Counted from the stretch's first letter, positions 17,404-35,578 are shown. The stretch: 64,000 bases of DNA from an uncultured bacterium (GCA_947571605.1 CANOYV010000003.1:3976-67975), one strand, 5' to 3'. Made by a program: numbers and translations. The notes: a model not told the origin generated them from the sequence alone.

Positions 17404-17411
17404 TGTTCATT

Positions 17412-18606: not shown

Positions 18607-18642
18607 GGAGAAAATCATCCCACCCTCGTGTCGTGCGTTTTT

Positions 18643-19344: not shown

Positions 19345-19820
19345 AGGTCTGATTCCTCCATGATATGATAGACGGTATCCTTGATGTACCGTCCCGAGGT
19401 GACGGGAGCCACCTTTCCCGGCAGGGACAGCGCCCAGATCACCCGCACACCCAGGGTGGCGGCGGCGTCCATATCCACCCCGCCGGGGCGAGACGCCAGG
19501 TCGATGACCAGGGCCCGCTCCTTCAAAGCGGCCAGCTCCTCCACCCCCAGCACCGGGGCGGGCACCGTGTTGAAAACGATATCGTAGCTGCACAGCCAGT
19601 CGCTCAGGTGATCCATACCCTCGCTGTTCAGGCCCATGCACTCGGCGGCGGCCCGCTGCTCATACCGCCGGGCGGACACCCACACCCGGGCCCCCAGCGC
19701 CCGCAGCCGGGGCGCCAGCGTCCGGCCCAGCCGCCCAAAGCCGATGACCAGCACACGGGCGTCGTGGAGGGTGATGGGCAGCTCCTCCATGGCGATCTGG
19801 ATGGCGCCCTCAGCGGTGGG
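19341..19820 (-). CDS. spoVFA: Dipicolinate synthase subunit A, 3' portion (interrupted gene)
   Basis: PTAEGAIQIAM, Rossmann GFGRLG, IDLASRPGG, LSLPGKVAP; no 5' part adjacent, the missing 5' part is at 34398-34783. Confidence 0.92.
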   Translation of the reverse strand, partial: PTAEGAIQIAMEELPITLHDARVLVIGFGRLGRTLAPRLRALGARVWVSARRYEQRAAAECMGLNSEGMDHLSDWLCSYDIVFNTVPAPVLGVEELAALKERALVIDLASRPGGVDMDAAATLGVRVIWALSLPGKVAPVTSGRYIKDTVYHIMEESDL

Positions 19821-19843
19821 TAGGGCGTTAGCGGTATGGTAAC
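19819..19843. other. Attachment site adjoining the spoVFA 3' portion (P arm plus CC core)
   Basis: Core 19819-19820, 3-bp spacer, arm GGCGTTAGCGGTATGGTAAC at 19824-19843. Confidence 0.88.
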
Positions 19844-19845
19844 GC

Positions 19846-19885
19846 AAAAAAAGAGAGACGGCCATCAACCAGCCATCTCTCTTTT
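19846..19885 (-). terminator. Intrinsic terminator at the element end, facing spoVFA 3' portion and spoVFB
   Basis: Stem AAAAGAGAGAUGGC/GCCGUCUCUCUUUU with a U-G wobble on the minus strand, followed by a U7 tract. Confidence 0.75.
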
Positions 19886-19923
19886 CCGTTTAATAAATTA
19901 CACTTTGAGTTCCAATATCAATC

Positions 19924-20424
19924 TCATCTACAAACGTCCAATTGCTGCATTGGGACGGAAACTGCATGATTAAGCCACCCATCCTGATATGTCCCCACAT
20001 AAACATAAACAGGGATGGAGAGCCGTTCTAAATACCGCTCCATCAGCGGGCGAACCTCTTCCCAGTCCAGCCCGCCGTTTCCGCAGCCCAGCCGGGGAAA
20101 CGCGATGGAGGCGATTCCCTTTTCCACATAGGTGTCCGCGAATTTTTGCAACCCCGCCTCGATGTATTCCAGCTTAGAGGGACTCCGCCAATGCTTTTTG
20201 GTTGGGAACATAAGCACCCATTTTTCCGGGCCCTTCCAGAGGAGGAGCTTCCCGATTTCCAACTGTTTTTCATCGCATACCCGCTCGTAGCTCTTGAACA
20301 TCGCCGGGTAGCGCTTTTTGAATTCCAGCGCAACGCCCTTTCCCATCACCCCTACAGTGTTCACCGTATTGACCAGCACTTGCGCCGGACTGCTGAATAT
20401 ATCGCCTTTCAAATAGGTAATCAT
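19924..20424 (-). CDS. DarG-like macrodomain protein, macrodomain only
   Basis: VNTVNTVGVMGKGVALEFK, FPTKKHWR and SIAFPRLGCGNGGLDW match DarG-type macrodomains. Confidence 0.8.
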   Translation of the reverse strand: MITYLKGDIFSSPAQVLVNTVNTVGVMGKGVALEFKKRYPAMFKSYERVCDEKQLEIGKLLLWKGPEKWVLMFPTKKHWRSPSKLEYIEAGLQKFADTYVEKGIASIAFPRLGCGNGGLDWEEVRPLMERYLERLSIPVYVYVGTYQDGWLNHAVSVPMQQLDVCR

Positions 20425-20590
20425 CACCATCACCTCAAACACGCATCATCAATATTTAGTATAACACAGCAGAAAGAAAAGTAAAAGACAAATCGAACTA
20501 AGGCTCAAAGGATTTCACTTTCCTGCATATCTTTGAGTGCCTGTCAAGCCAACCAAGCGGGACAGGAAAAATTTTGCGCAGGATTTTTGA

Positions 20591-20690
20591 GTTTCTGCAC
20601 TATACTGCAAAAACTTTCTTCTTTTTATAGTTTCTGCACTACAGTGCAGAAACTTTTCTTTTTTCGACAATTTTGCACCGAGCAAACCCC
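20591..20690. repeat. Three 39-bp-period palindromic repeats
   Basis: Copies at 20591, 20630 (perfect GTTTCTGCACT-AC-AGTGCAGAAAC) and 20669 (degenerate). Confidence 0.65.
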
Positions 20691-20771
20691 CGGCCTCCTG
20701 AGAGGGGAGGCCGGGGGTTCAATCTCCGTCTGACACGGCTGCACCACCTCCCACCGCTGGAGGGGGAGGTG

Positions 20772-21179
20772 TTACAGCCATGACAGGTCAGCCGCAGAAT
20801 ATCGCTTCACAATTTCCCGCTCCATGCGCTGGAACGCGGGGATATAGGTGTCAATGATGGTCAGCGCCAATCTCCGGGCGGCGTTTCCATCGTATATATG
20901 GCTCATATTATTGCGGTCACGGAGCATGGCAATCCAAACGTCCTCATCCACAAAGTCATAGACCTGAAACGCTACCTTTAAAATCTCCCGGGGGGAGCCG
21001 GATCTGGCCTCACTCCTGCCCTCGTATTGGAGCAGTTCCTTGAGCACCTTCCACCCCAGTTCAAATTGAATCATAAATTTGTCGATGATTCCGCCTATGA
21101 CAAACTCATTTTCCAGGTCCTGCTGGCCCGCCGTTGACAGAACTTCCAGATTGGCCCGGTAATGGTCAAGCTTTTTCAT
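20772..21179 (-). CDS. HEPN-domain toxin, HI0074/HepT family
   Basis: GIIDKFMIQFELGWKVLK and the RNNMSH R-x4-H motif; paired with an MNT gene. Confidence 0.82.
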   Translation of the reverse strand: MKKLDHYRANLEVLSTAGQQDLENEFVIGGIIDKFMIQFELGWKVLKELLQYEGRSEARSGSPREILKVAFQVYDFVDEDVWIAMLRDRNNMSHIYDGNAARRLALTIIDTYIPAFQRMEREIVKRYSAADLSWL

Positions 21180-21462
21180 AGAGAACCCGTCCCTCCTTTT
21201 GAATCGAAGCCAGCAGGTCTGGAGAGACATCCTGGCCCATGTCCACCACATCATACTTCAACAGAGTGGAGGTCTCCTCGTCAATGTCCGTCGCGAACCG
21301 TGCGACGCTGCCGCCCCAGACCGCCAGATCAATATCGCTGGCCCGGTGGTGGTCCCCCCTGGCGCGGGAGCCGAACAGAACCACTTTGTCCAGCTGATGC
21401 CGCTGCGCAAACCGGCAGATTTCCCTCTGCACCTGCTCTTTGATCCCGGTTCCGGCCAGCAT
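21166..21462 (-). CDS. Minimal nucleotidyltransferase antitoxin (MntA-like)
   Basis: LFGSRARGD...SDIDLAV motif; overlaps the HEPN gene. Confidence 0.85.
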   Translation of the reverse strand: MLAGTGIKEQVQREICRFAQRHQLDKVVLFGSRARGDHHRASDIDLAVWGGSVARFATDIDEETSTLLKYDVVDMGQDVSPDLLASIQKEGRVLYEKA

Positions 21463-21575
21463 ATATCCCACCTCTTTTAAAAAATATCTGTATTATTTTT
21501 AGTATAGCACAGCAGAGAAAAAAGTAAAAGGCAAATCGAACTGACACATGGGAGAATTTTGTTTTCCCGGGTGAA

Positions 21576-21612
21576 GAACCCCGGCTTCTGAACACAACAG
21601 AAGCCGGGGTTC
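21576..21612. terminator. Hairpin downstream of the recombinase
   Basis: Perfect 15-bp stem GAACCCCGGCTTCTG/CAGAAGCCGGGGTTC. Confidence 0.6.
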
Positions 21613-21618
21613 CTACGC

Positions 21619-23217
21619 TCACACCACCTCCCACCGCTGGATGGTGGTGGTGTATTCCTCCCGTTTGCCGCTGGTGGTGTACCAGATGCGGAAGGTTCCG
21701 GGCACAAACTTTACCCGCACGTTTATGTAGTCCTCAAACACCGTGACGCTCTCAATGACCTCCCGATAGACCTCCTCCGAGCCGTTCAGCCCCGCCCGGA
21801 TGGTGCGCACAATGTCCTCCAGCCCCGTTTTTTGACTCTCCAGAGTTTGGGCCGCCTCCGTAATTGCCAGGAGTTCCCGGTCGATGGCCGCCAGCTCCCG
21901 GTCATACCGTGAGCGCATGGTTTGTAGCTCCCCATCGGAGATTGTCCCGCTGAGAAAGGCGTCCAGGGCGTTTTCCCGCTTGCGCTCAATGGCCGTCCGC
22001 TTGGCTTGGAGGCGGTCTGCGCTCCCGCCGTCATCCGGGGCGCTTTGCAGCTTTTGGATATCGGCCAGCAGCTCGGCCACAATGGCGTCGCTGTCCAGCT
22101 CCAACTGCCCCAGCACAAAGGATACGATGGTGGTCAGGCTCTTGTCGTTCACCATCCGCATGTCGCAGCCCACGGCCTCCCCCCGGCTGTCCCGCTTCCA
22201 GTTCCCGTAGTGTACCCGGCTGTGACAGCCCCAAGCCATGTACAGATCGCCGTTGGGCCGCTTCCGCTTGCGCAGGGTGAAGCGGCTTCCGCAGGCCCCG
22301 CAAAGGATTTTCCCGGAGCACCAGTAGCGGTTGGAGTATTTGGACTTGTCCCCCTGCTTGGCACTGCGCAGGGCAAGCTCCCGCTGGGTAGCGTCCCAGG
22401 TCTCCCGGTCTATAATGGCCTCGTGGTGGTCCCGAAGCAGGATCTGCTTCTCCTGGCCTCGGTTGGGCACCTTCTTGTGGTCGAGAAAATCAGGGGTGAC
22501 GTTCTTCTTCTGGAGCAGATCGCCCACGTGCTTCTCGTTGTGCAGGATACGCAGGATCATCACGGAGGACCATTTCCCCGTGGCGGTTTTGGGCGGGTCA
22601 ATCCCAGCCTCGTACAGCTCCCGGGCGATGACGTGGGTGCCCTTTCCCTCGTTGAGAAACTTGTGGTAAATGAGCCGCACCACCTGGGCCTCCTCCGGCT
22701 TGACGAACAGCTTCCCGCCTCGGGTGTCAAAGCCGTAGGTGGAGTTGTTGCCGAACACCACCCCCGCCTCCATGCGGCGCTGCTGGCCCCACTTCACCCG
22801 CTGGGAGGTCTTGCGGGACTCCTCCTGGGCGATGCTGGCCATGATGGTTAGGCGCAGTTCCCCGTCATTCTCCCGCGTGTCGATGTTGTCATTGATGAAC
22901 AGAACCCCGACGCCCAGGCTTTTCAGTTTCCGGGTGTATTCCAGGGTGTCCACGGTGTTTCGGGCGAAACGGGACACCTCCTTGGTGAGGATCAGATCCA
23001 GCCCGCCTGTTTCGGCCTGGGCGATCATGCGGTTGAACGCCTCCCGCTTGCGGGTGCTGGTGCCGGAGATGCCCTCGTCGGCGTACACTGTGGTCAAAAT
23101 CCAATCTTGACGGGCCTGGATATATTGGGTAAAATAAGTCTGTTGGCTGTGCAGGGAATTCGCCTGATCCTCCCGGTCTGTAGACACGCGGCAGTAGGCC
23201 GCTACCCGCAGCGGCAT
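21619..23217 (-). CDS. Large serine recombinase (SpoIVCA/CisA-like integrase)
   Basis: Catalytic YCRVST, DEGISGT, KEVSRFARN; recombinase domain, Zn ribbon (CSGKILCGACG) and coiled coil; intact ORF with AGGAGG RBS. Confidence 0.93.
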   Translation of the reverse strand: MPLRVAAYCRVSTDREDQANSLHSQQTYFTQYIQARQDWILTTVYADEGISGTSTRKREAFNRMIAQAETGGLDLILTKEVSRFARNTVDTLEYTRKLKSLGVGVLFINDNIDTRENDGELRLTIMASIAQEESRKTSQRVKWGQQRRMEAGVVFGNNSTYGFDTRGGKLFVKPEEAQVVRLIYHKFLNEGKGTHVIARELYEAGIDPPKTATGKWSSVMILRILHNEKHVGDLLQKKNVTPDFLDHKKVPNRGQEKQILLRDHHEAIIDRETWDATQRELALRSAKQGDKSKYSNRYWCSGKILCGACGSRFTLRKRKRPNGDLYMAWGCHSRVHYGNWKRDSRGEAVGCDMRMVNDKSLTTIVSFVLGQLELDSDAIVAELLADIQKLQSAPDDGGSADRLQAKRTAIERKRENALDAFLSGTISDGELQTMRSRYDRELAAIDRELLAITEAAQTLESQKTGLEDIVRTIRAGLNGSEEVYREVIESVTVFEDYINVRVKFVPGTFRIWYTTSGKREEYTTTIQRWEVV

Positions 23218-23285
23218 GGCGTTCACCTCCTTCTTTTGAAATGGGGTGGGCGCGGGCCAGGGTTTGACACCGCGCCCACGGTTGG

Positions 23286-23417
23286 TCAGGCCCGCTGGAG
23301 ACGCATCAGTTGCTCAAACTGGGCCTGGGTGATGTGGTGCTGGCGGTAGAGTTCGCGGATGAGGCCCTGCTTGATGAGGCTGCCCAGGCCGCTGCTTTCA
23401 TGGTTTTGTTGACGCAT
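23286..23417 (-). CDS. 43-aa protein upstream of the recombinase (candidate directionality factor, SHOCT-like)
   Basis: MRQQNHESSGLGSLIKQGLIRELYRQHHITQAQFEQLMRLQRA; co-oriented with the recombinase. Confidence 0.55.
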   Translation of the reverse strand: MRQQNHESSGLGSLIKQGLIRELYRQHHITQAQFEQLMRLQRA

Positions 23418-23510
23418 AGTTGCCCTTCTTTCCATATATTTACAGAAATAATATATACTCCTGGCCACTGTTTTAGCACCCGACGAGCTTGTAAACAGCT
23501 CCTCAGTGTG

Positions 23511-25136
23511 TTAGAATTGGGGCAAAAGGCGAATGCCGCGATATCCCCGCTGATCCTTGCCACCAATGCGCGGTTGCCAAGATACCTGCGGCCTTTGCTT
23601 CATCTGCTCTTTGAGCTTCCGCGAAAAATCAATTTGCGAAATCGGAGCCGATTCATTATAAGTGCAATACGCCTCAAACAACGCTTGGGTTGTCGTTTCA
23701 GATCCCGGCGCAAATTCACAACACTCCTCCAGGAAACGCCCAACCGAGCGGTAGCCGCTGCGGGCGTCCTGCGGCGCGTATTCCGCAGGAATTGGTACTC
23801 TGGTCAACTCAAACCCATTTTGTTCCAGCCGGTAATACGCCTCAATAGCCTCCCCGACAATATATGGAGCCTCATCCAGCAAATCTTTGTACAATTCCTG
23901 CCGCATTTCCCGTTCCCCGACAGGGTTTTGAAAATAAATTGTGACCATTCGATTGAGGAGCGCTGCTTCACGTTCGAGCTTTGGTATGCGCAGAGGGTGA
24001 TTCCCTGCCATCAAGAGCAGGGGTTTACTGTGGTAGGTACGCGAGTTCTCGTATTTGCGCTCCGCCTTGATTGCGTCATCCCCCACAAGCTGCTTGACAA
24101 TCCCAACAGCCCGAGGTGGAAGTACAGAATCCGGCAAATCCAGGCAAAGCGCCAGCATTTTTCCCTCCAGACTGCCGATTGTCCACCGATCACCAAAATC
24201 GTGGACATCACGGACACACATCGTTTGCTCCTGGCCCACCAGTTCCTCTAAAAAACGTCCAAACTGGGTTTTGCCCGTGTTGCTGGGGCCGACAAGCACA
24301 AAAAAGTGCTTGAGCGGTCTGCACAGAATGGTCAGGGCAACAAGCTGGAGCAGTTGCTCCCGCACATCCGGGTTCTCGCCTGAGATATGCGACACAAAAT
24401 CCTCAAAAATTCGTCCAGAACAACGTGGAACGTCTTTGAATTTGACGTTTATTGCTGAAAAGAAGTTGTCGCGAGGGTCATGGGGAAGAAATCGCCCGCT
24501 CGCAATATCGAAGGCCCCATCCAAAAAGTTGATTTTGCCAGCCGCCGGAGTGACTTCTCCTGTCAGGCACAGCACGCTTGGATCGCCGAGGAGCCCCTTT
24601 CGTAGCTGCTCATACTCCCTGTTTGTCAGGCAGTATCCCTGGTTATGTGACTCTATGAGCGCCCGAATTTCTCGCTCGGCTTCCAGGTCGGACAGTTTTC
24701 TCCAGCAGGGTGGGTAATAGACACATAGTTGGTCGCCAAGGAGTATAAAGCGTTGCGATTGGGCAACAAACTTCTGTAGCGCCACCAAATCCACTCGATC
24801 CCTGCGTTTCCCCAAGCCCTTGGAAATATCTGGGATTTTAGGTTTGGCGCTGTCTGGGAGTTCAAACCCATTTACGTCCCTTGCCCAGGCATCCACGGAA
24901 ATGTCCGGCTCCAACTCCACGTTTCCCTTGAACGGCAGCTCCCAAGGGGTGAATTCACTGTCCTCGGGCAGGTCAAATTCGCCCTCCGGCTGCCACCCTC
25001 CGACAAGGAAGGGCGGCGAGCCGAAATCTGGCGCAAGTGGCAACGAATCCAGGGCAGGCTCCTCCAAGTCCACCTCACCCCTCGGACAAGGGATTGGACC
25101 CGGCTCAAAAATGAATGACAGGTTCACAAACGGCAC
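23511..25136 (-). CDS. Phage/plasmid P4-family D5-like SF3 helicase
   Basis: INFLDGAFD, Walker A GPSNTGKT, KQLVGDDAIKAERKY, LLMAGNH; start uncertain; no primase domain recognised. Confidence 0.8.
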   Translation of the reverse strand: MPFVNLSFIFEPGPIPCPRGEVDLEEPALDSLPLAPDFGSPPFLVGGWQPEGEFDLPEDSEFTPWELPFKGNVELEPDISVDAWARDVNGFELPDSAKPKIPDISKGLGKRRDRVDLVALQKFVAQSQRFILLGDQLCVYYPPCWRKLSDLEAEREIRALIESHNQGYCLTNREYEQLRKGLLGDPSVLCLTGEVTPAAGKINFLDGAFDIASGRFLPHDPRDNFFSAINVKFKDVPRCSGRIFEDFVSHISGENPDVREQLLQLVALTILCRPLKHFFVLVGPSNTGKTQFGRFLEELVGQEQTMCVRDVHDFGDRWTIGSLEGKMLALCLDLPDSVLPPRAVGIVKQLVGDDAIKAERKYENSRTYHSKPLLLMAGNHPLRIPKLEREAALLNRMVTIYFQNPVGEREMRQELYKDLLDEAPYIVGEAIEAYYRLEQNGFELTRVPIPAEYAPQDARSGYRSVGRFLEECCEFAPGSETTTQALFEAYCTYNESAPISQIDFSRKLKEQMKQRPQVSWQPRIGGKDQRGYRGIRLLPQF

Positions 25137-25632
25137 CTCTTTCCTGTCCCATCAGTTGCGCTTCCAGTGTCCAAAGCCTGATGAGCTGCCTTGAGCAATC
25201 CCACAGTATAGCACTAGACGGCCCATCCTCACCTTCACCGAAGACCGTTTTGATCTCAACGAGTTTTGGGTCAGAGCTAACTGCTTGGTCGGCAATGACG
25301 ATAATCTGCCCGCACAGTTGTTCGCGGTCAGACGCAAGCAGCGGGGTACCGTTCTCGTCCAAGAGAACGACGCGGACACGGTTGGGCCGTTCGCCCTTAT
25401 TGTCCAGTAGCATGAAGCCCCGGAAGCTGTCCTTGGTGAACATGATCTGCTGCCCGTTAACTGTGCGCAAGGAAATAAAAAGATCGGTGAGGATCGCCCG
25501 CCGCCGCTGGGTGTAGAGCGTGGGCAGGTTCTCCCAGTCTGGCTCTCGCTTCACACCGAAGCAGTTGGGATATCCCAGGTTCAGGTTCTCAAAAAGCTCG
25601 TTGAGCAGGGTCGTGGTTTGGAAATTTTTCAT
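25105..25632 (-). CDS. Hypothetical protein
   Basis: 175-aa ORF with GAGGAGG RBS; overlaps the helicase start. Confidence 0.6.
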   Translation of the reverse strand: MKNFQTTTLLNELFENLNLGYPNCFGVKREPDWENLPTLYTQRRRAILTDLFISLRTVNGQQIMFTKDSFRGFMLLDNKGERPNRVRVVLLDENGTPLLASDREQLCGQIIVIADQAVSSDPKLVEIKTVFGEGEDGPSSAILWDCSRQLIRLWTLEAQLMGQERGAVCEPVIHF

Positions 25633-25769
25633 AACAAGCTCCTCCTCGTCGATTGTGTGTTTGCTCGGCGCCGTTCGCATTTTCAGTGTAGCACGTCCCC
25701 TGGTGTGCTTGTAGGGGGGGATTAAAAAAACTTTTTCCCCCTCCCCCCCAGTGTCAATAGGCACCACAA

Positions 25770-25822
25770 AAAATATCGGAGGTATTGGGAAGCCAATCAT
25801 TTCCCAATACCTCCGATATTTT
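25770..25822. terminator. Perfect 22-bp hairpin after the low-GC ORF
   Basis: AAAATATCGGAGGTATTGGGAA-N9-TTCCCAATACCTCCGATATTTT. Confidence 0.6.
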
Positions 25823-26929
25823 ACCTAAACCAATTATTCAAAACTCTTGTATCCATTTTGCTTTCAAGCTCTTTCTGAACTTCCTCAATTCTTTCATCCG
25901 TTAATGGACTACCCCCATCTTCCGCAGTTCCCGCCTCCACTGTGCCTTTTGCGTTATCGGCATTCTGTAAAACCTCTTTCAGCGTCTTTTCAATTATTTT
26001 GATAACCAAGCCATCTTTCCCATGCCCTGCCGCCCCCATGCTCTCTACTTCTTCCACAGCCGCAGGGTCAACGCCATACCTCTCAAAGCATTCCTTTTCA
26101 ATTTCCGCTTTGCGCTTTTCTATTTGTAGACGCACTTTCGCAGCCTCATTCACACTGCCTATCGTTCCATTCTCCAACTTTGACAACTTTTTCTCCAACT
26201 CGCGAAGCGTCTCGTCCTGCATATCTCCGATAGTTTTATCTTCCATTTCTTTTATAGCGCTCCAATATTCAGGCGGTGCGCAATCGCCCATTTTTATCCC
26301 ATGGTCAATCAAAATCTCGTTCAGGCTCTCGCTTGCCTCGCCCATCGCATCATTCCACTGCTCACAAAATGTATCCAGCAGCTTACCCAGCGAATAATTG
26401 ATCGCGGAGATCATATCCAGCCTATTGTTAGCATTGAAGCAGGGCGTCCCTTGTATTTGAGAAAACAGCCGACACAGTTTACTGCGTGACGAATTCAGGA
26501 CATTGTCAATATCCCGTCTATAGAGCCAGCCTGTTCGCTGCCTGTATGCAACGATTTGATTCTCAATGCTCTCAGAATCTTTTTCCGCGTTTTTCATGCA
26601 TCCGCATATGAATTCCTCTAACTGTTTAAATTCAGTAATTGGCACCCTATCGAACTGTCCTTTACGCAATTCCCGGAATGGGGTATCCGACGCATTGAGT
26701 AGGAATCTATGTAGGTACATACTCTCTTTTTCTGCAAAGCAATAATAACCCCTGTTATCAAGAAAGCTTTTCTTATCTAAACCAATCACCTTGCAAAGCG
26801 AAAAAATATTTCGCGGTATTCTTTTTTTGCATTCTCAAGATCCGGATCGTTTTTATGCTTCCCATGCTCCTTTTTTCGTGTATACACCCGTTCTATAATA
26901 GAACTCAGGCTTTCGTACTCCTCACCCAT
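25821..26929 (-). pseudogene. Low-GC hypothetical protein split into 47-aa and 322-aa ORFs (possible 1-bp deletion near 26788)
   Basis: ORF 26786-26929 has a good RBS and overlaps ORF 25821-26789; the peptides read on if one base is added (FRFA-K-VIGLDKK). Confidence 0.45.
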
Positions 26930-27141
26930 ATGAATACCCTCCCATTCAAAAATCTCAATTAAAGGATGCACACAAAAATTATACATGGCAGAAGTATAAT
27001 GTCAACCCAAATCAACTCATTCTTGGGCAGATGGGCGGATGGGCACCGCGAAAATGGCTTAAATCATAGCAGCATAGATGCCAAATATCCAATGCAAAGA
27101 CAGAGTTTTTATCCGCCCATCTGCCCATCCGCCCCACAGTA

Positions 27142-27348
27142 CTATAATTTTTCTGTAAATGCCCGCAGGCTGTCTTTAGTCACCCTCCACTGCTTCCCCA
27201 CCCGGAACCCCTTCAATTCCCCCGAGTTGAGCAGCCCGTACAGCGTGTTCTTTCCGATATACAGCAAGTCCATGACCTCTCTGGGCGTCAGGTACTCGCT
27301 GATGGGCTCCCGCTCGTCCAAACCCTCATAATCATCATAATCGTACAT
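27142..27348 (-). CDS. Excisionase-like helix-turn-helix protein
   Basis: YLTPREVMDLLYIGKNTLYGLLNSGELKGFRVGKQWRV is a typical Xis/HTH_17 pattern. Confidence 0.8.
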   Translation of the reverse strand: MYDYDDYEGLDEREPISEYLTPREVMDLLYIGKNTLYGLLNSGELKGFRVGKQWRVTKDSLRAFTEKL

Positions 27349-27573
27349 GGTTTTACTCCTTTCCGGCCCAATTGGGGCCTTATGAGTTTGTTTGACGTTA
27401 TCCTGGTATTCCCAAACGATACATTATTTAAGAGAACATCCGCATAACCCGGCGTTTCCTTACGCTTACGGGTTCTGCGGATGTTTTTATTTCTTGCGGA
27501 AAAACCGGGGAAAACGCCTGAAAATCCAAAAATCAGCCGCGATTTTTCCCAAAAATTGAAAGGAGGAACCCCC

Positions 27574-27657
27574 ATGCTGTACCTGTTCCTGTCCGCCCTC
27601 CGCGCCGTCTTATACGAAGTGGCGGTCTGTCTGCTCCGCGGCGTCTGCTGCGCGTAG
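27574..27657 (+). CDS. 27-aa hydrophobic peptide
   Basis: MLYLFLSALRAVLYEVAVCLLRGVCCA; strong AAGGAGG RBS. Confidence 0.45.
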   Translation: MLYLFLSALRAVLYEVAVCLLRGVCCA

Positions 27658-27792
27658 CAACACCTATCACCCGGAAAGGAGCGCGATCCCCAATGATGAA
27701 CTGAGCAACGATATCCTGAGCCTTTTGGCCGCCGCTGTGGCCGCCGGTCTGTGCGCGGCCATCGACTACATTTTAGAGGAGGAAACAGACTG

Positions 27793-28904
27793 ATGACAGA
27801 AACCTTTATTTGCTCTGCCTGTGGAGAGGTCCACCCGCTGGAGGATCGGACGGTGGTGGACGGCCAGGAGTTCTGCCGCCCCTGCCTGGAGGAGGAAACC
27901 GTTGTGTGCCACGAGTGCGGCCGGCACATCCTGCGGGAGGACAACGCGGGGGACGATACCACGCCCCTGTGCCAGAACTGCTATGACCGCTATTACACCA
28001 ACTGCACCCGCTGCGGGGCGCTACTGGAGCTGGACCGCGCCTACTACCTCAGCGATGACGCGGACGAGGAGGAGCCGTTATGTCACGGCTGCTATGCGCT
28101 GCGTACCGATCCCGGGGAAATCCACAGCTATTACTACAAGCCGGACCCCATTTTCTATGGGGAAGGGGCACGCTATTTCAGCGTGGAGCTGGAAATCGAC
28201 GGGGCGGGGGAGCGCAGCGACCGGGCGTGGCAGTTGGTGAACGCGGCTAACAGCAACGGTTTGGAGCACATCTACATCAAGCATGACGGTTCCCTGGAGG
28301 ACGGCATGGAGATTGTTACCCACCCTATGACCCTGGGCTATCACCTCGCCGAGATGCCCTGGGGCGCGGTGGTGGCCGAGGCCGTCCGCATGGGCTACAC
28401 CAGCCATAAAGCCTGTACCTGCGGCCTCCATGTCCACGTCAATCGCTCGGCCTTTGGCCTGTCCGAGGAGGCCCAGGAGGCGGTGATCGCCCGCATCCTG
28501 TTCTTTGTGGAGAACCATTGGAACGAGCTGCTGCGGTTCAGCCGCCGCACCCGAGACCAGATGGAGCAGTGGGCGGCCCGGTATGGCTGGAAGGACAACC
28601 CCAAGGCGGTGCTGGACAGCGCCAAAAAGGAGCACTACCAACGGTACAAATGGTGAACCTGACCAATTATGATACCATAGAGTTTCGGATGTTCCGGGGG
28701 ACGCTGAAGCTCAATACCCTGATTGCCACCTTGCAGATGGTTGACCGCATCTGTGAGGTGGCTTTGTATTTGTCCGACCAGGAGATGCAGGGCCTGACCT
28801 GGACGGATTTTGTGTCCGGCTGTACCGCCCCGGAGCTGGTGCAGTACCTCAAGGAGCGGCGGCTCTACATCAACGAGCCGGTGGCCGTCCCCGAGGAGGT
28901 GTGA
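27793..28904 (+). pseudogene. Zn-finger-rich putative amidoligase (COOH-NH2 ligase type 2), frameshifted near 28651
   Basis: Multiple CxxC motifs, VELEID, KHDGSL, MEIVTHP, CGLHVHV; C-terminal TIEFRMFRGT lies in another frame (28518-28904 ORF). Confidence 0.78.
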
Positions 28905-28906
28905 CC

Positions 28907-29863
28907 ATGTGCGCCATTTTCGGAGTGCTGGACTATCAGGGAAAGCTGACCCCGCCCCAGCGGATCGGGCTGTTTCGGGCGCTGGCGGATGCCGCCCAGG
29001 CGAGGGGCACCGATGCCAGCGGGGTGGCCTATATTCATAACGGGGTCGTGCAGATTCAGAAAGCCCCCCGGCCCGCCTGTAGAATGCGCTGGCGCATTCC
29101 TTCCCAGGCCCGGTATCTCATGGGCCACACCCGCATGACCACCCAGGGGGCGGCATCCAGGAACTACAACAACCACCCCTTTCCCGGCAGGGCCGGAACC
29201 CAGCCCTTTGCCCTGGCCCACAACGGGGTAATCTATAACGATGTGGAGCTGCGGCGCAACCACCGTCTTCCGCCCACCGGGATTGAGACGGACAGCTATG
29301 TGGCGGTACAGCTTTTGGAGAAGGCCGGGAAGCTGTGCCCGGACAGCCTGTGCCGGATGGCGGAGCAGTTGGAGGGCAGCTTCACTCTCACGGTGCTGGA
29401 CGTGGAAAACACCCTGTACCTGATCCGGGGAAACAACCCCCTGTCTGTCCGGCTGTTCCCCAGCCTGGGGTGTTACCTCTACGCCTCCACCGATGAAATC
29501 CTCAACATGGCGCTGGCCGCGCTGGGGATTTCCAAGCTGGCCTACACCGATATCCCCATTGGCCAGGGGGACGTGGTGGCAATCAACCCCCAGGGGCGGC
29601 GTACTGTCACCCGATTTGACGATACCAAACTGCGGCCTCAGCGATACTTCTCCGATTGGGGCTGGTATGAACCCGCCAAGGAACCAGATGACTATATGGA
29701 AACCCTGATGGAATACGGCAAACGTCATGGGGTGCCGGAACGGGAACTGCGGCTCCTGATTAACGCCGGGTACGACGCGATGGACCTGGAGGAGATGATC
29801 TACGACAAGCAGTTTCGGGCGTACTGCCTCCGGGAGATCCTGGCGGAGTACGGGGTGCGCTGA
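28907..29863 (+). CDS. Class II (Ntn) glutamine amidotransferase-like protein
   Basis: N-terminal MC, RGTDASG, GHTRMTTQG, NNHPF, AHNGVIYN, TDS motifs. Confidence 0.85.
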   Translation: MCAIFGVLDYQGKLTPPQRIGLFRALADAAQARGTDASGVAYIHNGVVQIQKAPRPACRMRWRIPSQARYLMGHTRMTTQGAASRNYNNHPFPGRAGTQPFALAHNGVIYNDVELRRNHRLPPTGIETDSYVAVQLLEKAGKLCPDSLCRMAEQLEGSFTLTVLDVENTLYLIRGNNPLSVRLFPSLGCYLYASTDEILNMALAALGISKLAYTDIPIGQGDVVAINPQGRRTVTRFDDTKLRPQRYFSDWGWYEPAKEPDDYMETLMEYGKRHGVPERELRLLINAGYDAMDLEEMIYDKQFRAYCLREILAEYGVR

Positions 29864-29976
29864 GTGTGCCGCTGGGGTATACCCTAACGGCGCAGTGGAA
29901 AAGTATAGCAATAGGGCCGGTTTCCGGGTTTTGGCATATGCCACGCCCAGAACCGGCCCTATTGGCACCAATCTGT

Positions 29977-30315
29977 TTATTTCTGTTCTGCCAGGTGCGC
30001 CGCCAAATCCTGGCCCCTGGTACAGATGGCCCGGATAAAGACCTGTCGCCCGTCCTCGTCCACACTGTACAGCACCACATCATTCCGGGTGACATACTGC
30101 CGCACACCCCGCCCTGCCCACGGCTCCAGATGATAGGGCTGATACTTGAACGGGAAAGTGGCAAGCTGTTTCTGAATCTCAAATTTCAGCCGAAAATACC
30201 ACTCCTCAGCCAAATCTGGATCATGAAACTGGGCCGCAATATAGTCCGCCTTTTCCTCAATGTCCTGTATGGCGCTTTCGGTGTAGACAATCTTATACTG
30301 CGGTATCTGTGCCGT
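29977..30315 (-). pseudogene. RelE/ParE-family toxin with ACG in place of a start codon
   Basis: Open frame 30315-29977 (AQIPQYKIVYTESAIQDIEEKADYIA...VLYSVDEDGRQVFIRAI); begins ACG, overlapping the antitoxin 3' end. Confidence 0.68.
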
Positions 30316-30601
30316 GGGCGAACCGTCCTTTCATGCGGCGGTCAAGCTCGTCCTGGCTGTATACCCGGCCCGCCGCAATGTCGGCCTCGCTTCGGAGCAG
30401 CTTGGCATCTACCTCCTGGGCCGTCATATCCTCCCAGGCTTTGAGGGTGGGACGGAAAGGCATCCCACCCTCCCGCAAGCTCTGCTGGGCAAAAATGCGC
30501 ACGGCCTCCGCAAAAGAAGTGCCCAAATTGCGGTATAGCTCCTCCACTTCGGCCTTGAGGTCACTGTTCATTCTGATTTGCAGGGTGGCATCCATTGCCA
30601 T
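30293..30601 (-). CDS. RelB/DinJ-family antitoxin
   Basis: LQIRMNSDLKAEVEELYRNLGTSFAEAVRIFAQQSLREGGMPF. Confidence 0.85.
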   Translation of the reverse strand: MAMDATLQIRMNSDLKAEVEELYRNLGTSFAEAVRIFAQQSLREGGMPFRPTLKAWEDMTAQEVDAKLLRSEADIAAGRVYSQDELDRRMKGRFAHGTDTAV

Positions 30602-30613
30602 ATCCACCGCCTC

Positions 30614-30637
30614 CTTGTAGTGCTATTGTACTACAAG
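30614..30637. promoter_or_regulatory. Putative antitoxin autoregulatory operator
   Basis: CTTGTAGT-N8-ACTACAAG inverted repeat directly upstream of the antitoxin RBS. Confidence 0.5.
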
Positions 30638-30673
30638 TATTCCCTTGCGTCAAGAAAACTTGCTTGAAAGGAA

Positions 30674-31234
30674 GTGGCTGATTTGAAAATAGGTTACGTC
30701 CGTGTCAGCACCCAGGAGCAGAACACCATCCGGCAGGAGCTGCTAATGGAAAGCCTGGGTGCGGATGAGGTCTACATCGACCGCATGAGCGGCAAAAGCA
30801 CAGACAGGCCGGAGCTAAAAAAGCTGATGGAGTACGTGCGCCGGGGCGACACGGTGATCGTGGAATCCATCAGCCGGTTTGCCCGGAATACCCGCGACCT
30901 GCTGGAGCTGGTGGAGCGGCTGACGGCAAAAGGGGTGGAGTTTGTGTCCAAAAAGGAGGCCATCGACACCACCACCCCCAGCGGGAAGTTTATGCTTACC
31001 ATTTTCGGGGCGGTGGCCGAGCTGGAGCGGGAGTACATCCTACAGCGCCAGCAGGAGGGGATTGCCATTGCCAAGGCCCAGGGGGTTTATAAGGGCCGGA
31101 AGCCCATCGAACGCCCTGAGTTTCCCCAGGTGGCGGCGCTGTGGCGGGAGGGGAAAATCACGGCGGTGGAGGCCATGCGGCGGCTGGACATGAAGCCGCG
31201 CACGTTTTATCGGAGGGTGAAAGCCCTGCCGTAA
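30674..31234 (+). CDS. Small serine recombinase (resolvase/invertase)
   Basis: GYVRVSTQEQN, SGKSTDRPEL, SISRFARN, C-terminal HTH. Confidence 0.9.
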   Translation: MADLKIGYVRVSTQEQNTIRQELLMESLGADEVYIDRMSGKSTDRPELKKLMEYVRRGDTVIVESISRFARNTRDLLELVERLTAKGVEFVSKKEAIDTTTPSGKFMLTIFGAVAELEREYILQRQQEGIAIAKAQGVYKGRKPIERPEFPQVAALWREGKITAVEAMRRLDMKPRTFYRRVKALP

Positions 31235-31243
31235 AGAAAAAGA

Positions 31244-31585
31244 TCAGCCGCCCATTGGCTGATCTTTTTTTGCGTCCATTGCCATGAGAAACGTCCGCAG
31301 AAGCCGCTCCGCGTACTCCCGCTCCGTGGGTGTGGCGCTTTGAAGCATGAGGGCTATGGTATTGCTCTCCTCCACTGTGGACGTACCATATAAAATATAG
31401 TCCGTAGACAGCCGGAGGGCACGGGATATTTTACACAGGGTTGGGACGGACATTCCCTTCACCCCCAGCTCAATATCCGAGCAGAACTTGGGCGTCACGT
31501 CCAGCAGCTCGGCAAACTGCTCCCGGGTGTAGCCCATAAACTCCCGCTGTGTACGGATTCGCTTTCCAATCGCGCCCCAGTCCAT
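31244..31585 (-). CDS. XRE-family transcriptional regulator
   Basis: IGKRIRTQREFMGYTREQFAELLDVTPKFCSDIELG. Confidence 0.85.
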   Translation of the reverse strand: MDWGAIGKRIRTQREFMGYTREQFAELLDVTPKFCSDIELGVKGMSVPTLCKISRALRLSTDYILYGTSTVEESNTIALMLQSATPTEREYAERLLRTFLMAMDAKKDQPMGG

Positions 31586-31756
31586 TCAACCCCTCCGTTC
31601 CTTCTGTAGTTTAACCCGGAAAGTTGTAGTTATAAATAAACTTACAGGGTTGACTATTAAGAACTCTTGGGGTATATTTAACATGATAGGCCACTACAAC
31701 ACAGCCGGGATTTGGCCCAATCTCCATACTACACAAAAATGCAGGAGGATATGACT

Positions 31757-32323
31757 ATGGGAGAGTATGTCAAGAAGAAAAAAGATATGAAATTTCAAAG
31801 CCAGGATGCACTGAAAGCAGTTCAGACCGTGCTTGACGAAGCGGCCCAGGCATTGAATGACAAATCAAGAAAGATATCTGATTCTCCGATTGCCGATGCC
31901 CTCGCGGGCGCGGTGGGCGTAGGTCTGGGCGCGGGCATTGGCTTTGCGGGACTGTACCTCGGCGGCTCTGTTGTGGGCCTGAGCGCCGCAGGAATCACCA
32001 GCGGACTGGCCGCAGCCGGCGGACTGATTGGCGGTGGAATGGCGGCGGGACTCGCTGTATTGGCGGCCCCCGCCGTGGTGCTAGGCGGTGCTGGAATCGG
32101 TGTTGCTTCTCATATACGGAACAAAAAGCTGCGCGAAGCGAAAGAAATCCTTTACAAAGACGCTGTTGCCAAACAGTCAGCCATTGTAAGAGCATTGAAA
32201 GAGGAGACGAATGCGGATAAGGATCGAATTGAGTATCTGCAAAGCTTGAACATACTCCTCCAATCCGCTATCCGGGATTTGCAGCACGATTTGGGCAAAG
32301 ATGCCTTAGCGATTCGCACTTGA
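31757..32323 (+). CDS. Hypothetical glycine-rich membrane protein, paralog 1
   Basis: AGGAGG RBS; long Gly/Ala hydrophobic core and C-terminal coiled coil. Confidence 0.75.
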   Translation: MGEYVKKKKDMKFQSQDALKAVQTVLDEAAQALNDKSRKISDSPIADALAGAVGVGLGAGIGFAGLYLGGSVVGLSAAGITSGLAAAGGLIGGGMAAGLAVLAAPAVVLGGAGIGVASHIRNKKLREAKEILYKDAVAKQSAIVRALKEETNADKDRIEYLQSLNILLQSAIRDLQHDLGKDALAIRT

Positions 32324-32347
32324 TAAAGTATTGGAGGAATCCTTAAA

Positions 32348-32893
32348 ATGGGAGAATATATCACAAAAAAAGAGGACATGAAATTCCAAAGCCAGGAGGC
32401 CCTGGTTCCTGTGCAGAACGTCATCGACGAAGCGGGCAAGGTGCTGAACGATCCCTCGCTGCGGGTTGAGGATTCCGCCATCAGTGGGGCAATTACCGGG
32501 GCACTGGGTGCGGGTGCGGGCGGTGCCCTTGGATTTGCTGGGCTTTATTTTGGCGGTACGGTAGGGTTAAGTGCGGTAGGAATCACCAGTGGATTGGCCG
32601 CAGCCGGCGGGCTAATCGGCGGCGGTATGGCCGCAGGGCTTGCCGTATTGGCGGCCCCTGCTGTTATCCTGGGCGTAATTGGAGCCGCAATCGGCGCTGC
32701 TTCGGAGGAAGAAAAGCTCCATGAGGCAAAGGAGTTAGTATACAAAAACGCCATTGAAAAACAGACGGCGATCCTCAAAGTATTGGCCTTTGAAACCAAC
32801 GCGGATAAGGAGAGAATTGAGTATCTTACCGGCCTCAATATTCTCCTGGACTCCGCCATCAAAGATTTGAAACATGACTTGGGAATAGCGTGA
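32348..32893 (+). CDS. Hypothetical glycine-rich membrane protein, paralog 2
   Basis: Clear paralog of the preceding ORF (MGEY..K..DMKFQSQ.AL; GITSGLAAAGGLIGGGMAAGLAVLAAPAV). Confidence 0.78.
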   Translation: MGEYITKKEDMKFQSQEALVPVQNVIDEAGKVLNDPSLRVEDSAISGAITGALGAGAGGALGFAGLYFGGTVGLSAVGITSGLAAAGGLIGGGMAAGLAVLAAPAVILGVIGAAIGAASEEEKLHEAKELVYKNAIEKQTAILKVLAFETNADKERIEYLTGLNILLDSAIKDLKHDLGIA

Positions 32894-32914
32894 ATCCTTC
32901 TGGAGGGTAAATCA

Positions 32915-34315
32915 GTGAGCCATTTTAAATACTCCGATCAAGAGAAAGACTTGAATAAAGTATTGAAGATGAATTTGGACATCTCTAAGTCTCTGCAAAA
33001 TGATTCTGGCATGGCCTCCACCCGCAAAGAAGCCGACGCCGCCATCGCATCCTCCCTGGAACTACTGCAATCTCTTGGAAAAGGCAAAGAAGTGGGCAAA
33101 CTGGCCCAGGAGGTTTCCGAACATGGGAAAGACCGGCACCTGGAGCACCGGCCCGAAATAGAACCCTGGGAGGAGATTGTCCGTCAGGCCAACGAGTATT
33201 GCCCCACCCCTGTCATGCTGGAAGATATTATGTCCGACCGCGAGATACAGGCGGCGTTTGACGAGCGAGACGAAATCCGCAGACGCTTTGCGGAAAAGAC
33301 CAGCATCGTCAACCCTACGGACTTAACTTTTTTGACTGTCGCCACCGCCCTGCAAGTTGCCAAAAGCCTGATTTTCCCCTATGTAGCGGGGATGTTCCAC
33401 TATGGCGAGAGCTTTGACCCTGCCACCAGACTGGCCCATAATGACAAATCCATTGAGCGTGCGCACCGGCAAGCTAATGACGCATTCCGGGACAAGCGTT
33501 TGGAAAGCCATGGTACAGGCCACTGGATCAACATTCTGTATCAAACGCCTCCATACGACATTACAAAGGGCTCGGCGGCCATGGGCATCAACATGGGCGG
33601 GCGCTATCACCGAATGTACACCCTGGGCCATGACCCGATCCTGGGCTGGCTTTTCGGCACCATGAACATTTTAACCGATGTCATCACATTGAACAATTTC
33701 AACTCTTACCGGGTCATTCGAAAGCCTAAAATGATTATCACACCCGAGCCCGTTTCCATTGGTCAAATGATTCAGGAGAGCTATCAGCTTGTGCAGGATG
33801 ACTTTCTCAACCTCCCTGCGGCAGTCTTTGCCCAGGCACGGCATTTCAAGTCTGACGAGTACACAAAATGCGGGCTCCCGGTTCCGATTCTCTCCAGCCT
33901 CAACGAAAATTTTGCCAGCAAGCTCTATAGGTCGCAGTACGATGCCCTTTGCTTTGCCCGTGACGCCAAAATCGTGGGCGCATCATTTATCGTGTCAAAG
34001 CTCTTTGATATTGTCATCTCCCTCGTCCACGGGCTGTTCTGTACCGAAGGCGAGGACAAAGACCTGTTTGAGTGCAGGACGCGGAAAATCCTGCTAATCT
34101 CCAACAGCATCGCCTCCACCAGCACCATCATCCACGCGGGGATCACTGCCAATCCCAAAAATCTGGATATTGGCAGTCTGCTCAATACCATCACTCACCT
34201 GTTTACGGATATCCACTTCATTCTGCGGGTCAAGCAGGAGTTCATCGACAGCGAAATTTCAAGCAGATTGCAGAAGGAGCTTGACGAGGTGGACAGGCTG
34301 TACGAGACGATTTAA
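32915..34315 (+). CDS. Hypothetical 466-aa protein with hydrophobic segments
   Basis: Long lower-GC ORF with HRMYTLGHDPILGWLFG motif; third gene of the operon. Confidence 0.75.
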   Translation: MSHFKYSDQEKDLNKVLKMNLDISKSLQNDSGMASTRKEADAAIASSLELLQSLGKGKEVGKLAQEVSEHGKDRHLEHRPEIEPWEEIVRQANEYCPTPVMLEDIMSDREIQAAFDERDEIRRRFAEKTSIVNPTDLTFLTVATALQVAKSLIFPYVAGMFHYGESFDPATRLAHNDKSIERAHRQANDAFRDKRLESHGTGHWINILYQTPPYDITKGSAAMGINMGGRYHRMYTLGHDPILGWLFGTMNILTDVITLNNFNSYRVIRKPKMIITPEPVSIGQMIQESYQLVQDDFLNLPAAVFAQARHFKSDEYTKCGLPVPILSSLNENFASKLYRSQYDALCFARDAKIVGASFIVSKLFDIVISLVHGLFCTEGEDKDLFECRTRKILLISNSIASTSTIIHAGITANPKNLDIGSLLNTITHLFTDIHFILRVKQEFIDSEISSRLQKELDEVDRLYETI

Positions 34316-34322
34316 CCTAAAA

Positions 34323-34357
34323 GAATGCCCGAGCGGGATCGCCCTGCCCGGGCATTC
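34323..34357. terminator. Hairpin between the three-gene operon and the att site
   Basis: GAATGCCCG...CGGGCATTC stem. Confidence 0.55.
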
Positions 34358-34374
34358 GCCCCCTTCTCCCCACT

Positions 34375-34399
34375 GTTACCATACCGCTAACGCCACAGG
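34375..34399. other. Attachment site adjoining the spoVFA 5' portion (P arm plus CC core)
   Basis: Arm GTTACCATACCGCTAACGCC at 34375-34394 (exact reverse complement of 19824-19843), 3-bp spacer, core 34398-34399. Confidence 0.88.
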
Positions 34400-35573: not shown

Positions 35574-35578
35574 ACCAA

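Follow-up and report, generated by a model that had tools for sequence, protein, structure and literature searches.

A serine-recombinase element in the spore gene dpaA of an uncultured mouse-gut Oscillospiraceae bacterium

Insertion anatomy and attachment sites of the dpaA element

We analyzed a 64-kb stretch of DNA from an uncultured bacterium (GCA_947571605.1, CANOYV010000003.1:3976-67975; hereafter the window, with positions counted from its first letter). In this mouse-gut Oscillospiraceae bacterium, a 14.6-kb mobile element interrupts the spore gene dpaA (spoVFA), which lies on the minus strand; the insertion is 14,579 bp long and sits in codon Pro129 (motif N-A-I-P/T-A-E-G). The 5' fragment of dpaA (34400-34783, minus strand; codons 1-128) was identified by a Pfam DpaA_N match (E=2.4e-24) and by translation. 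It continues into the element as far as a TAA at 34376-34378, giving a 135-amino-acid (aa) product that ends NAIPVALAVW, and an exact-sequence look-up found this truncated DpaA on 159 public contigs. The 3' fragment (19341-19818, minus strand) runs from the third base of codon 129 to the stop and encodes the NAD-binding domain (Pfam 2-Hacid_dh_C and related families). The start of an intact dpaB (spoVFB; 18757-19344, minus strand; Pfam Flavoprotein) overlaps the dpaA stop, an arrangement also present in the intact loci L055-L057. In silico removal of 19821-34399 (14,579 bp) yielded a DpaA of 287 aa with NAIPTAEGAI, identical at 284 of 287 residues to the natural intact protein P0253, and removal of 14,580 bp left the frame broken.

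Upstream of the 5' fragment, a pattern match identified a candidate mother-cell-type promoter (34829-34855, minus strand; AC, 17 nt, AATACACT). It was judged in part against the -10 consensus of sigma-E and sigma-K promoters in B. subtilis, CATACA-T. It was also compared with consensus elements of C. difficile, in which the sigma-K -35 element is AC and -10 boxes are of types such as CATATAAT (PMC3789822). By these comparisons, the box 5' of dpaA appears to resemble mother-cell promoters, and dpaAB is sigma-K dependent and mother-cell specific in both C. difficile and B. subtilis (PMC3789822).

A 20-bp arm, GGCGTTAGCGGTATGGTAAC, occurs at 19824-19843 on the plus strand, and its exact reverse complement occurs at 34375-34394, making the two complementary at 20/20 positions. 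The core motif of the family described below, GCRTTAGCGGTAT, has two occurrences in the window, both within these arms, compared with 0.06 expected from shuffled sequences. At both ends the arm lies 3 bp from a GG on the plus strand (CC in gene sense), with GG at 19819-19820 and spacer TAG at 19821-19823 on the left and spacer ACA at 34395-34397 and GG at 34398-34399 on the right. Joining the element ends produces a palindromic 48-bp attP, GTTACCATACCGCTAACGCC-CTA-CC-TGT-GGCGTTAGCGGTATGGTAAC, exactly the sequence with perfect 20-bp arms around CC that a preliminary description of the window had proposed. The predicted junction sequences are GATGAACGCAATCCCCACCGCTGAGGGCGCC for attB and GCTAACGCCCTACCTGTGGCGTTAGC for attP. 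The attP half-sites of the window are complementary at 21/24 positions, and the attB halves agree at few positions only.

In the occupied locus, the 2-bp CC core is flanked in both attL and attR by a half-site from the host on one side and a half-site from the element on the other. The core copy of attL (34398-34399, minus strand) supplies the first two bases of codon Pro129, as supported by frame restoration, by the natural empty site of contigs L058 and L059, and by the relative L018. It adjoins the P' half-site (34375-34397, minus strand), which is made up of spacer TGT (34395-34397) and arm GGCGTTAGCGGTATGGTAAC, contains the in-frame TAA, and is conserved in relatives. The P half-site of attR (19821-19843, minus strand) comprises arm GTTACCATACCGCTAACGCC (19824-19843) and spacer CTA and reads in frame T-A-N-A-L before Pro129; its core copy (19819-19820, minus strand) is supported by frame restoration and the empty site. 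The preliminary description had read these features correctly. One P arm does provide a TAA stop for the 5' fragment, whose translation ends ...NAIPVALAVW at that stop, and the other does read in frame as N-A-L-P, its translation being ...TANALP before TAEGAI. AACGC is likewise shared by the left arms of attB and attP at the same core distance, at -9..-5 in both. The claim that CC restores the spoVFA frame also held, but the span that had been quoted for the element, 19819-34399 (14,581 bp), includes both copies of the core.

Since CCC is common to both junctions, the window alone permits more than one placement of the crossover. Placement at the CC core is the sole 2-bp option that reproduces the four C's (ATCCCCACC) of the empty site in L058/L059. 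In L018, the junctions read G-CC-T and A-CC-G, and CC is the only sequence common to both. Sequence comparison also showed two CC copies at the occupied site and one at the natural empty site. The empty site and the relatives together confirm the 2-bp CC core as the predicted point of crossover. The att block conserved in the family spans +5..+17 from the core. A by-eye comparison of attB +10..+18 with attP +15..+23, which allows for a zinc-ribbon-domain motif lying ~5 bp nearer the core in attB, gave at most 3/9 matches. Overall, we hold this site-specific recombination anatomy of the element to be almost certain.

The empty site came to light because the 90% cluster of the truncated 135-aa DpaA also includes one full-length 287-aa protein, P0253, which is encoded on the two metagenome contigs L058 and L059. 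These contigs are 99.4-99.6% identical to the flanks of the window and read ...GTGATGAACGCAATC-CC-CACCGCTGAGGGCGCC... across the site, identical letter for letter to the predicted attB (ATC-CC-CACC). A second, more distant empty site was found in L055 (96.5% identical). The top scorer against the restored DpaA, P0121, was rejected as an empty site, having an internal duplication and belonging to another species. Truncated dpaA is the usual state of this species, with 159 contigs versus 2 carrying the intact gene, and the presence of the element in the window versus its absence from L058/L059 is, as judged from these alignments, a polymorphism within a 99.5%-identical lineage.

As a separate observation, the dpaB gene of L058 and L059, in which dpaA is intact, is interrupted by a different element with a Replic_Relax-like gene (window 18890-18891; L058 1752-3900; L059 3007-3076). 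The ends of this element carry inverted arms, AGAGACAYACYGATAAGG, directly beside a 2-bp overlap (TT in gene sense) and look like another serine-recombinase-type site. Loose contig ends in runs X3, X17, and X27 indicate the same dpaB insertion, and depths in run X17 suggest one strain with both the dpaA and dpaB elements.

The large serine recombinase family and its small partner

The gene at 21619-23217 (minus strand) encodes a 532-aa large serine recombinase (integrase). It matches the Pfam families Resolvase (5.8e-33), Recombinase (6.7e-22), and Zn_ribbon_recom (1.7e-6; 28.7 bits against a cut-off of 25.3) as well as the PHROG 95 integrase (E=9e-125), and it starts with an ATG at 23217 served by a GGAGG ribosome-binding site. 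Residues 4-159, CRVST included, align to PDB entry 3g13 (E 7.7e-44), the best solved relative, which is the catalytic domain of a conjugative-transposon recombinase of C. difficile; SprA of SPbeta was next (1e-14). Ser12 in the N-terminal motif AAYCRVST is the presumed catalytic nucleophile. With the recombinase domains complete, the predicted attB present in L058/L059, and the CC core confirmed by relatives, the locus does contain the full integrase/attP/attB set that had been proposed for it.

Protein and genome searches recovered recombinase relatives of 39-98% identity from mouse, human, rabbit, goat, and other gut Clostridia, with uncultured Oscillospiraceae as the nearest named records. 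The recombinase has a dpaA fragment next to it in 26/42 genome loci and in another 8 loci on metagenome contigs (L002-L004, L006-L010). These fragments all break at residues 126-131, with the same codon, the same CC core, and the P-arm motif. Aligned on the Pro codon, attL of the family reads AAYGCNRTN-CC-T[GA][TC]NGC[GA]TTAGCGGTAT... and attR reads ...ATACCGCTAAYGCnnn-CC-NACNGCNGARGG. These alignments show a recombinase family that has kept its target, Pro129 of dpaA, across many Clostridia. Complementary positions per half-site of the reconstructed attP number 15-21/24 in 11 relatives and 9/24 in the outlier L046. Inverted arms are a trait of the family and perfection of the arms is not, so the perfect arms that had been taken as a sign of a functional system are unnecessary for one; the suggestion of function itself finds indirect support in the transfer, polymorphism, and substitution data. 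Family elements range from 3.1-5.8 kb (L045, L046, L030, L019, L013) up to 16.5 kb (L007), the minimal ones containing scarcely more than a small open reading frame (ORF) and the recombinase. Cultured carriers of family members include Butyricicoccus sp. Marseille-Q5471 (L022; NZ_CATNVC010000010.1) and Clostridiaceae bacterium strain 9 (L019; QXXE01000022.1).

In the window, this small ORF encodes a conserved 43-aa protein directly upstream of the recombinase (23286-23417, minus strand), recognized by family alignment as a candidate directionality factor or accessory protein. A co-oriented ORF of 34-54 aa lies directly upstream of every recombinase examined, the 3-kb minimal elements included, and among distant members it runs up to or into the start of the recombinase. 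Seventeen members align without gaps (consensus L..IK.GL.RELY....IT..QF..LM..QR), and the exact 43-aa protein of the window occurs on 538 contigs. The small ORF gave no significant match in Pfam, PHROGs, or PDB and has no named homologue; its resemblance to SHOCT and UPF0175 is sub-threshold (E ~0.01-0.1). For attL x attR recombination, serine integrases rely on a directionality factor (PMC3783163, PMC5499854, PMC5025042). Because such a factor is needed and the small ORF is the only other gene common to the minimal elements, we propose its product as the candidate directionality factor.

The gap between the small ORF and the recombinase contains a GC-rich hairpin followed by a short T run (23246-23279, minus strand; -30 kcal/mol, z=-3.7), a possible attenuator. 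Closer family members share a hairpin at this position, and its sequence differs in L002, L006, L009, L013, L017, and L018. Upstream of the small ORF, a promoter-like box was found by sequence pattern (23450-23479, minus strand; GTGCTA, 16 nt, TATATATT), and both the -35 GTGCTA and a -10 box xATATAxTA recur in relatives. The orientation of the two-gene cassette varies within the family (L013, L015, L034, and relatives versus L020 and L022). Some members have it ~100 bp downstream from the 5' piece of dpaA and in the same orientation, where read-through from the dpaA promoter could drive it. Others have it pointing away from dpaA, with a start ~60 bp from the attR P arm that would place its -35 region in or across the att site.

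Some loci also contain a second break in dpaA, at residue ~243-245 (L033 and L018, also L021, L029, and L034). In L033, dpaA is in three pieces (8051-8443, 12925-13284, and 20474-20602), and the corresponding positions in L018 are 7161-7559 and 7779-8741. Directly after the second break, both L033 and L018 encode another large serine recombinase, with only 27% identity to the first.

Comparisons among members bear on whether the system is active. The element of L012/L016 is 96.4-97.5% identical to that of the window at the nucleotide level over 10-11 kb, and the host flanks are only ~85% identical. A near-identical element between flanks of ~85% identity points to recent transfer into different species, with insertion afterwards at the same codon. 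In their B' arms, L012/L016 differ from the window at several positions and offer natural attB variants. The ratio of nonsynonymous to synonymous substitution rates (dN/dS) of the recombinase is 0.10-0.25 up to synonymous saturation, with no stop codons in the 37 locus sequences that aligned across the whole recombinase. For the two halves of dpaA, tested on the fragments that passed a full-length filter (20 five-prime and 20 three-prime), dN/dS is 0.08-0.40, again with no stop codons. By these ratios, purifying selection acts on the recombinase and on each half of dpaA, and a permanent knockout by the insertion is hard to square with dpaA halves that remain open and selected. These data indirectly support a recombination system that is still functional.

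Cargo genes and transcription signals of the element

Scans of the element ORFs with Pfam, PHROG, and PADLOC found no virion, packaging, lysis, or conjugation genes and gave only an integrase, a primase, regulators, toxin-antitoxin genes, and defence-like genes. By predicted gene content, the element is a non-phage integrative element. A backbone shared with L009-L011 comprises an XRE-type helix-turn-helix (HTH) gene, a small serine recombinase, a pair of glutamine amidotransferase and amidoligase-like genes, unknown genes, a primase/helicase-like gene, the small ORF, and the large recombinase. The primase/helicase-like protein (23511-25136, minus strand; Pfam D5_N and DUF5906; PHROG DNA primase 1e-39) represents a replication module and is syntenic in L003, L006, and L009. 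The small serine recombinase (30674-31234, plus strand; 186 aa, resolvase/invertase type; Pfam Resolvase 3.6e-45), is present in L009-L011 but not in the minimal elements; its likely role is multimer resolution or inversion of a segment. The amidoligase-like and class-II glutamine amidotransferase genes (27751-28656 and 28901-29863, plus strand; Pfam; PHROG 16683 3e-55) are syntenic in L009-L011. Pfam matches also identified a RelB antitoxin (30293-30607, minus strand) and the XRE-type HTH protein (31244-31585, minus strand).

Toward attL lie a Gly-rich BnzA-like gene (31712-32323, plus strand; PADLOC BnzA 3e-8), a second one called solely from its 74-78% DNA repeat with the first (32348-32893, plus strand), and a gene for a BnzB-like 466-aa protein (32915-34315, plus strand; PADLOC BnzB 8e-24). 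The two Gly-rich membrane-protein genes are tandem paralogues (direct repeats D1 and D2, 74-78% identical, ~590 bp apart). Together, the BnzA/BnzB-like genes at the attL end are a candidate defence module.

The variable cargo on the attR side of the window (19924-21471) consists of a DarG-like macro domain gene (19924-20442, minus strand; Pfam; PADLOC DarG 1e-65) and a HepT/MNT toxin-antitoxin pair (HepT 20772-21254 and MNT 21166-21471, minus strand; Pfam; PADLOC PDC-S09). A segment of ~390 bp (19862-20249), covering part of the macro gene and sequence just downstream, has no counterpart in L012/L016. Other members carry different genes here, including a DUF4143 ATPase, AAA_15/21, DUF4365, and, identified by eye, an L,D-transpeptidase-like ORF. 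In L007 (3066-19643), a full type I-C CRISPR-Cas locus (cas3, cas5d, csd1, cas7, cas4, cas1, cas2) and a xanthine-dehydrogenase-like gene set lie between the recombinase and attR. Judged from gene content, the attR-side cargo position is a swappable slot.

Terminator-like hairpins on the dpaA-sense strand lie just inside both ends of the element, with a U7 run at attR (19846-19890, minus strand; -26.4 kcal/mol, z=-6.8) and a U4 run at attL (34319-34357, minus strand; -27.4 kcal/mol, z=-2.65). Both were found by folding, and a terminator scan missed them through its loop-length limit. L002 has a hairpin and T-run of different sequence at the same attR position, read from the sequence without folding. 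As predicted structures, the end hairpins would keep transcripts from the dpaA promoter out of the element and transcripts of the element out of the 3' piece of dpaA and dpaB. An Rfam scan of 17000-37000 gave no matches.

We also observed several repeats and a polymorphism within the element. A 469-bp stretch in its AT-rich center (26959-27427) is absent in runs X3, X16, X18, X25, and X26, with 4 bp of microhomology at the joint, and contains a 17-bp perfect inverted repeat (27024-27040/27111-27127). A perfect sigma-70-type promoter (TTGACA, 16 nt, TATAAT; 12/12) at 26978-27005 (minus strand) faces two leftward genes of unknown function (26786-26986 and 25821-26789). The 322-aa and 231-aa ORFs have between them a 22-bp perfect palindrome flanked by A/T runs (25770-25791/25801-25822), probably a terminator that works in both directions. 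Copies of a 48-bp direct repeat (90% identical) precede the macro-domain gene (20452-20499) and the MNT/HepT pair (21495-21542), each copy overlapping a TTTACT-16-TATACT promoter-like site, and a tandem 39-bp unit containing a palindrome lies nearby (20584-20661). The 48-bp repeats and 39-bp units may serve the cargo genes as common operators or other regulatory sequences.

Proposed excision of the element, rival explanations, and meaning

As a whole, these findings are best explained by a serine-recombinase element in dpaA that is excised in the mother cell, a reading that we consider probable. In our model, the large serine recombinase would have inserted the element into the CC of codon Pro129. 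A recombinase dimer would sit on each att site, with 24-bp P half-sites and shorter B half-sites (PMC3783163). Cleavage with a 2-bp stagger at CC would leave a CC overhang, subunit rotation would swap the halves, and the non-palindromic CC core would set orientation. An AAYGC/GCRTT block 5-9 bp from the core is common to the B and P arms, and its presence at the same core distance means that one recombinase-domain contact could fit both sites (PMC3783163). The upstream 43-aa protein, or another factor of the element, would turn the recombinase to attL x attR excision. Excision in the terminally differentiating mother cell would then restore dpaA for dipicolinate synthesis at the sigma-K stage, while the forespore chromosome would retain the element. 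The end hairpins would keep the split gene and the element transcriptionally apart until excision. Precedents for such an excision mechanism, including skin, SPbeta, vfbin, and gin, are described (PMC4191935, PMC5499854, PMC5025042, PMC5595907), and by this analogy we lean toward developmental excision.

Several observations weigh against this model. We searched assembled contigs from 12 public runs (4 labelled RNA) against 18800-35400 for excision products and found only the integrated form; no contig showed an attB/attP excision joint, jumped from 19820 to 34400, or crossed a circle junction, although such contigs drop rare variants. A strict family pattern found no attP junction in viral or JGI metagenome collections, and the sole match to a relaxed pattern, L054, was rejected as a palindrome that arose by chance, next to genes for an IS110 transposase and an M20 peptidase on a high-GC soil contig. 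Flank depth often exceeded element depth by 20-60% in the runs, but related strains or species with common flank k-mers could also produce such an excess, and we left it unused as evidence. The exact restored 287-aa DpaA was not found in the protein collection. The contigs with the empty site come from another strain (0.4-0.6% divergent, with a different dpaB insertion) and represent polymorphism rather than developmental excision. The -35 GTGCTA of the recombination-module promoter departs from both the AC of sigma-K and the ATA of sigma-E, the role suggested for the small ORF is conjecture drawn from its position and conservation, and the model presumes that the host sporulates.

The element might instead be purely selfish, using dpaA as a conserved, dispensable landing site and excising for horizontal transfer only, with no link to the mother cell; the insertion would then abolish dipicolinate synthesis or leave it unaffected. 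Defence-type and toxin-antitoxin cargo with a primase module is typical of mobile islands, horizontal transfer is clear from L012/L016, and the 12-run contigs lack an excision product and no sporulation promoter is assigned. Diverse serine recombinases on one conserved coding target are moreover a general pattern (PMC10083194), and dpaAB is found in some non-spore-formers and is dispensable in some clostridia (bioRxiv 10.1101/2022.02.25.481979). However, the 40 full-length dpaA fragments (20 five-prime and 20 three-prime) are all open and under purifying selection, the truncated gene is on 159 contigs against 2 with the intact one, and 3-kb minimal elements persist without transfer functions. 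Three different serine-recombinase-type insertions have also hit the dpaAB operon, as expected if mother-cell genes are a safe harbour since excision restores them. With this evidence on both sides, a purely selfish element seems rather unlikely. That the element is an immobile fossil, with sites and recombinase that look intact merely through recent insertion, would suit the lack of direct activity data and of excision joints in those contigs, but we consider it very improbable given a recombinase dN/dS of 0.10-0.25 to synonymous saturation, full-length recombinases without stops in the 37 sequences aligned end to end, a near-identical element in different hosts that is present or absent within a 99.5%-identical lineage, and arms kept across the family.

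Excision would be unneeded if the two dpaA polypeptides assembled into a working enzyme, helped by the P arm that mimics N-A-I-P. The frame of the P arm is open, T-A-N-A-[LIPV]-P is encoded in many members, and gene callers predict a 174-aa product from the 3' piece. In this piece, however, the in-frame ATG lies within the strong terminator hairpin and has no ribosome-binding site, and members are unrelated in sequence upstream of the P arm. The N-A-L-P mimicry is more simply explained by the AAYGC block common to B and P half-sites (PMC3783163), so that no protein function is needed for it, and we see very little room for a two-polypeptide enzyme. The small serine recombinase at 30674-31234, a conserved backbone gene, could in principle mobilize the element in place of the 532-aa enzyme, but it is absent from minimal elements with the same site, and 24-bp half-sites with a 2-bp core suit large serine recombinases (PMC3783163); we give this possibility almost no credence.

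Excision by the large serine recombinase would place the element among known intervening elements, which have been described in sigK (skin), spoVFB (vfbin), spoVR (vrin), spsM (SPbeta), gerE (gin), and yabG (yin) (PMC4191935, PMC5595907, PMC10747680, PMC6957869). A mother-cell-type gene split at codon 129, a site-specific recombinase of its own, and an ORF rebuilt by in silico excision all fit such elements, and the likeliest reading of the element is as a member of the skin/vfbin/SPbeta class of sporulation-gene intervening elements that targets dpaA. Full-text literature searches found no dpaA/spoVFA intervening element, with an earlier mention in the original vfbin description possible, and a sporulation-gene survey that catalogued split sigK genes makes no mention of split dpaA (bioRxiv 10.1101/2022.02.25.481979). 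The mechanism class, and diverged serine recombinases on one coding target, are already known (PMC10083194).

In the descriptions cited, vfbin in spoVFB (dpaB) of Bacillus weihenstephanensis KBAB4 likewise lies in the dipicolinate synthase operon of a spore former and is excised to rebuild its gene (PMC4191935, PMC6957869, PMC10747680). Set against those descriptions, the element analyzed here splits dpaA, resides in Clostridia (Oscillospiraceae) rather than Bacilli, is not prophage-like, and belongs to a family spread across many genera with a fixed target codon. Skin in sigK (SpoIVCA in B. subtilis, CD1231 in C. difficile) similarly carries a large serine recombinase inside an element that splits a mother-cell gene. 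Skin elements vary in size from a few kb up to tens of kb and have no cargo in common (bioRxiv 10.1101/2022.02.25.481979), and excision in C. difficile is governed by the small directionality factor CD1234 (PMC5025042). The dpaA element differs in target gene and recombinase lineage, and its excision is proposed only. SPbeta in spsM, with the SprA integrase and the SprB directionality factor, also pairs a serine integrase with a small partner, but it is a functional phage, whereas the dpaA element lacks virion genes, and the small ORF of the latter has no detectable similarity to the PDB sequence set, including an SprA-YotN fusion chain.

Gin in gerE of Bacillus cereus ATCC 10987 is a minimal non-prophage element, essentially a serine recombinase and an accessory gene (PMC5595907). 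It resembles the 3-6 kb members L013, L019, L030, L045, and L046 but differs in gene, host class, and recombinase, and the window member is 14.6 kb long with replication and defence-type cargo. Phage-type serine integrases (A118/LI, Bxb1, phiC31) share with the dpaA element a 2-bp non-palindromic core, an attP of ~48-50 bp with inverted 24-25-bp half-sites, a less symmetric attB, and an inner block common to P and B half-sites (PMC3783163). A zinc-ribbon-domain motif moved 5 bp inward in attB could not be identified in the dpaA element. Many diverged recombinases acting on one conserved coding site, as in the dpaA family, also appear in a catalogue of large serine recombinases and their att sites (PMC10083194).

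The family provides a natural series of recombinase, attP, and attB on one protein motif (NA[IV]PTAEGA), with attB variants and a candidate directionality factor. It may help in studying how serine integrases choose their sites and possibly in directing integration to a defined site in gut anaerobes that form spores, where integration would disrupt dpaA. The idea, raised in the preliminary description, of a genome-engineering tool for gut Clostridia is plausible, but such a tool would hardly stand out from the thousands of recombinase/att sets already in computational catalogues (PMC10083194). Organisms with a split dpaA would be wrongly labelled defective by genome surveys that take an intact dpaA as the mark of sporulation. 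The finding is of moderate interest, which comes from the breadth of the family, its conserved small partner, and the multiple insertions in the dpaAB operon.

More tentatively, and short of what we would call probable, the dpaAB operon of gut Oscillospiraceae and allied Clostridia may be a hub for several independent serine-recombinase intervening elements (at DpaA Pro129, at DpaA residue ~244, and within DpaB). The main family would have a universal two-gene excision cassette (a ~45-aa SHOCT-like protein and the large serine recombinase), and the space between cassette and attR would be a swappable defence-gene island. Dipicolinate synthesis in many gut spore formers would then depend on a programmed DNA rearrangement for which the papers searched gave no description. 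If excision is developmental, a broad set of gut Clostridia would rely on the recombinase of a mobile element for spore maturation through dipicolinate loading, and the skin/SPbeta paradigm would reach uncultured Oscillospiraceae as well as the A subunit of dipicolinate synthase.

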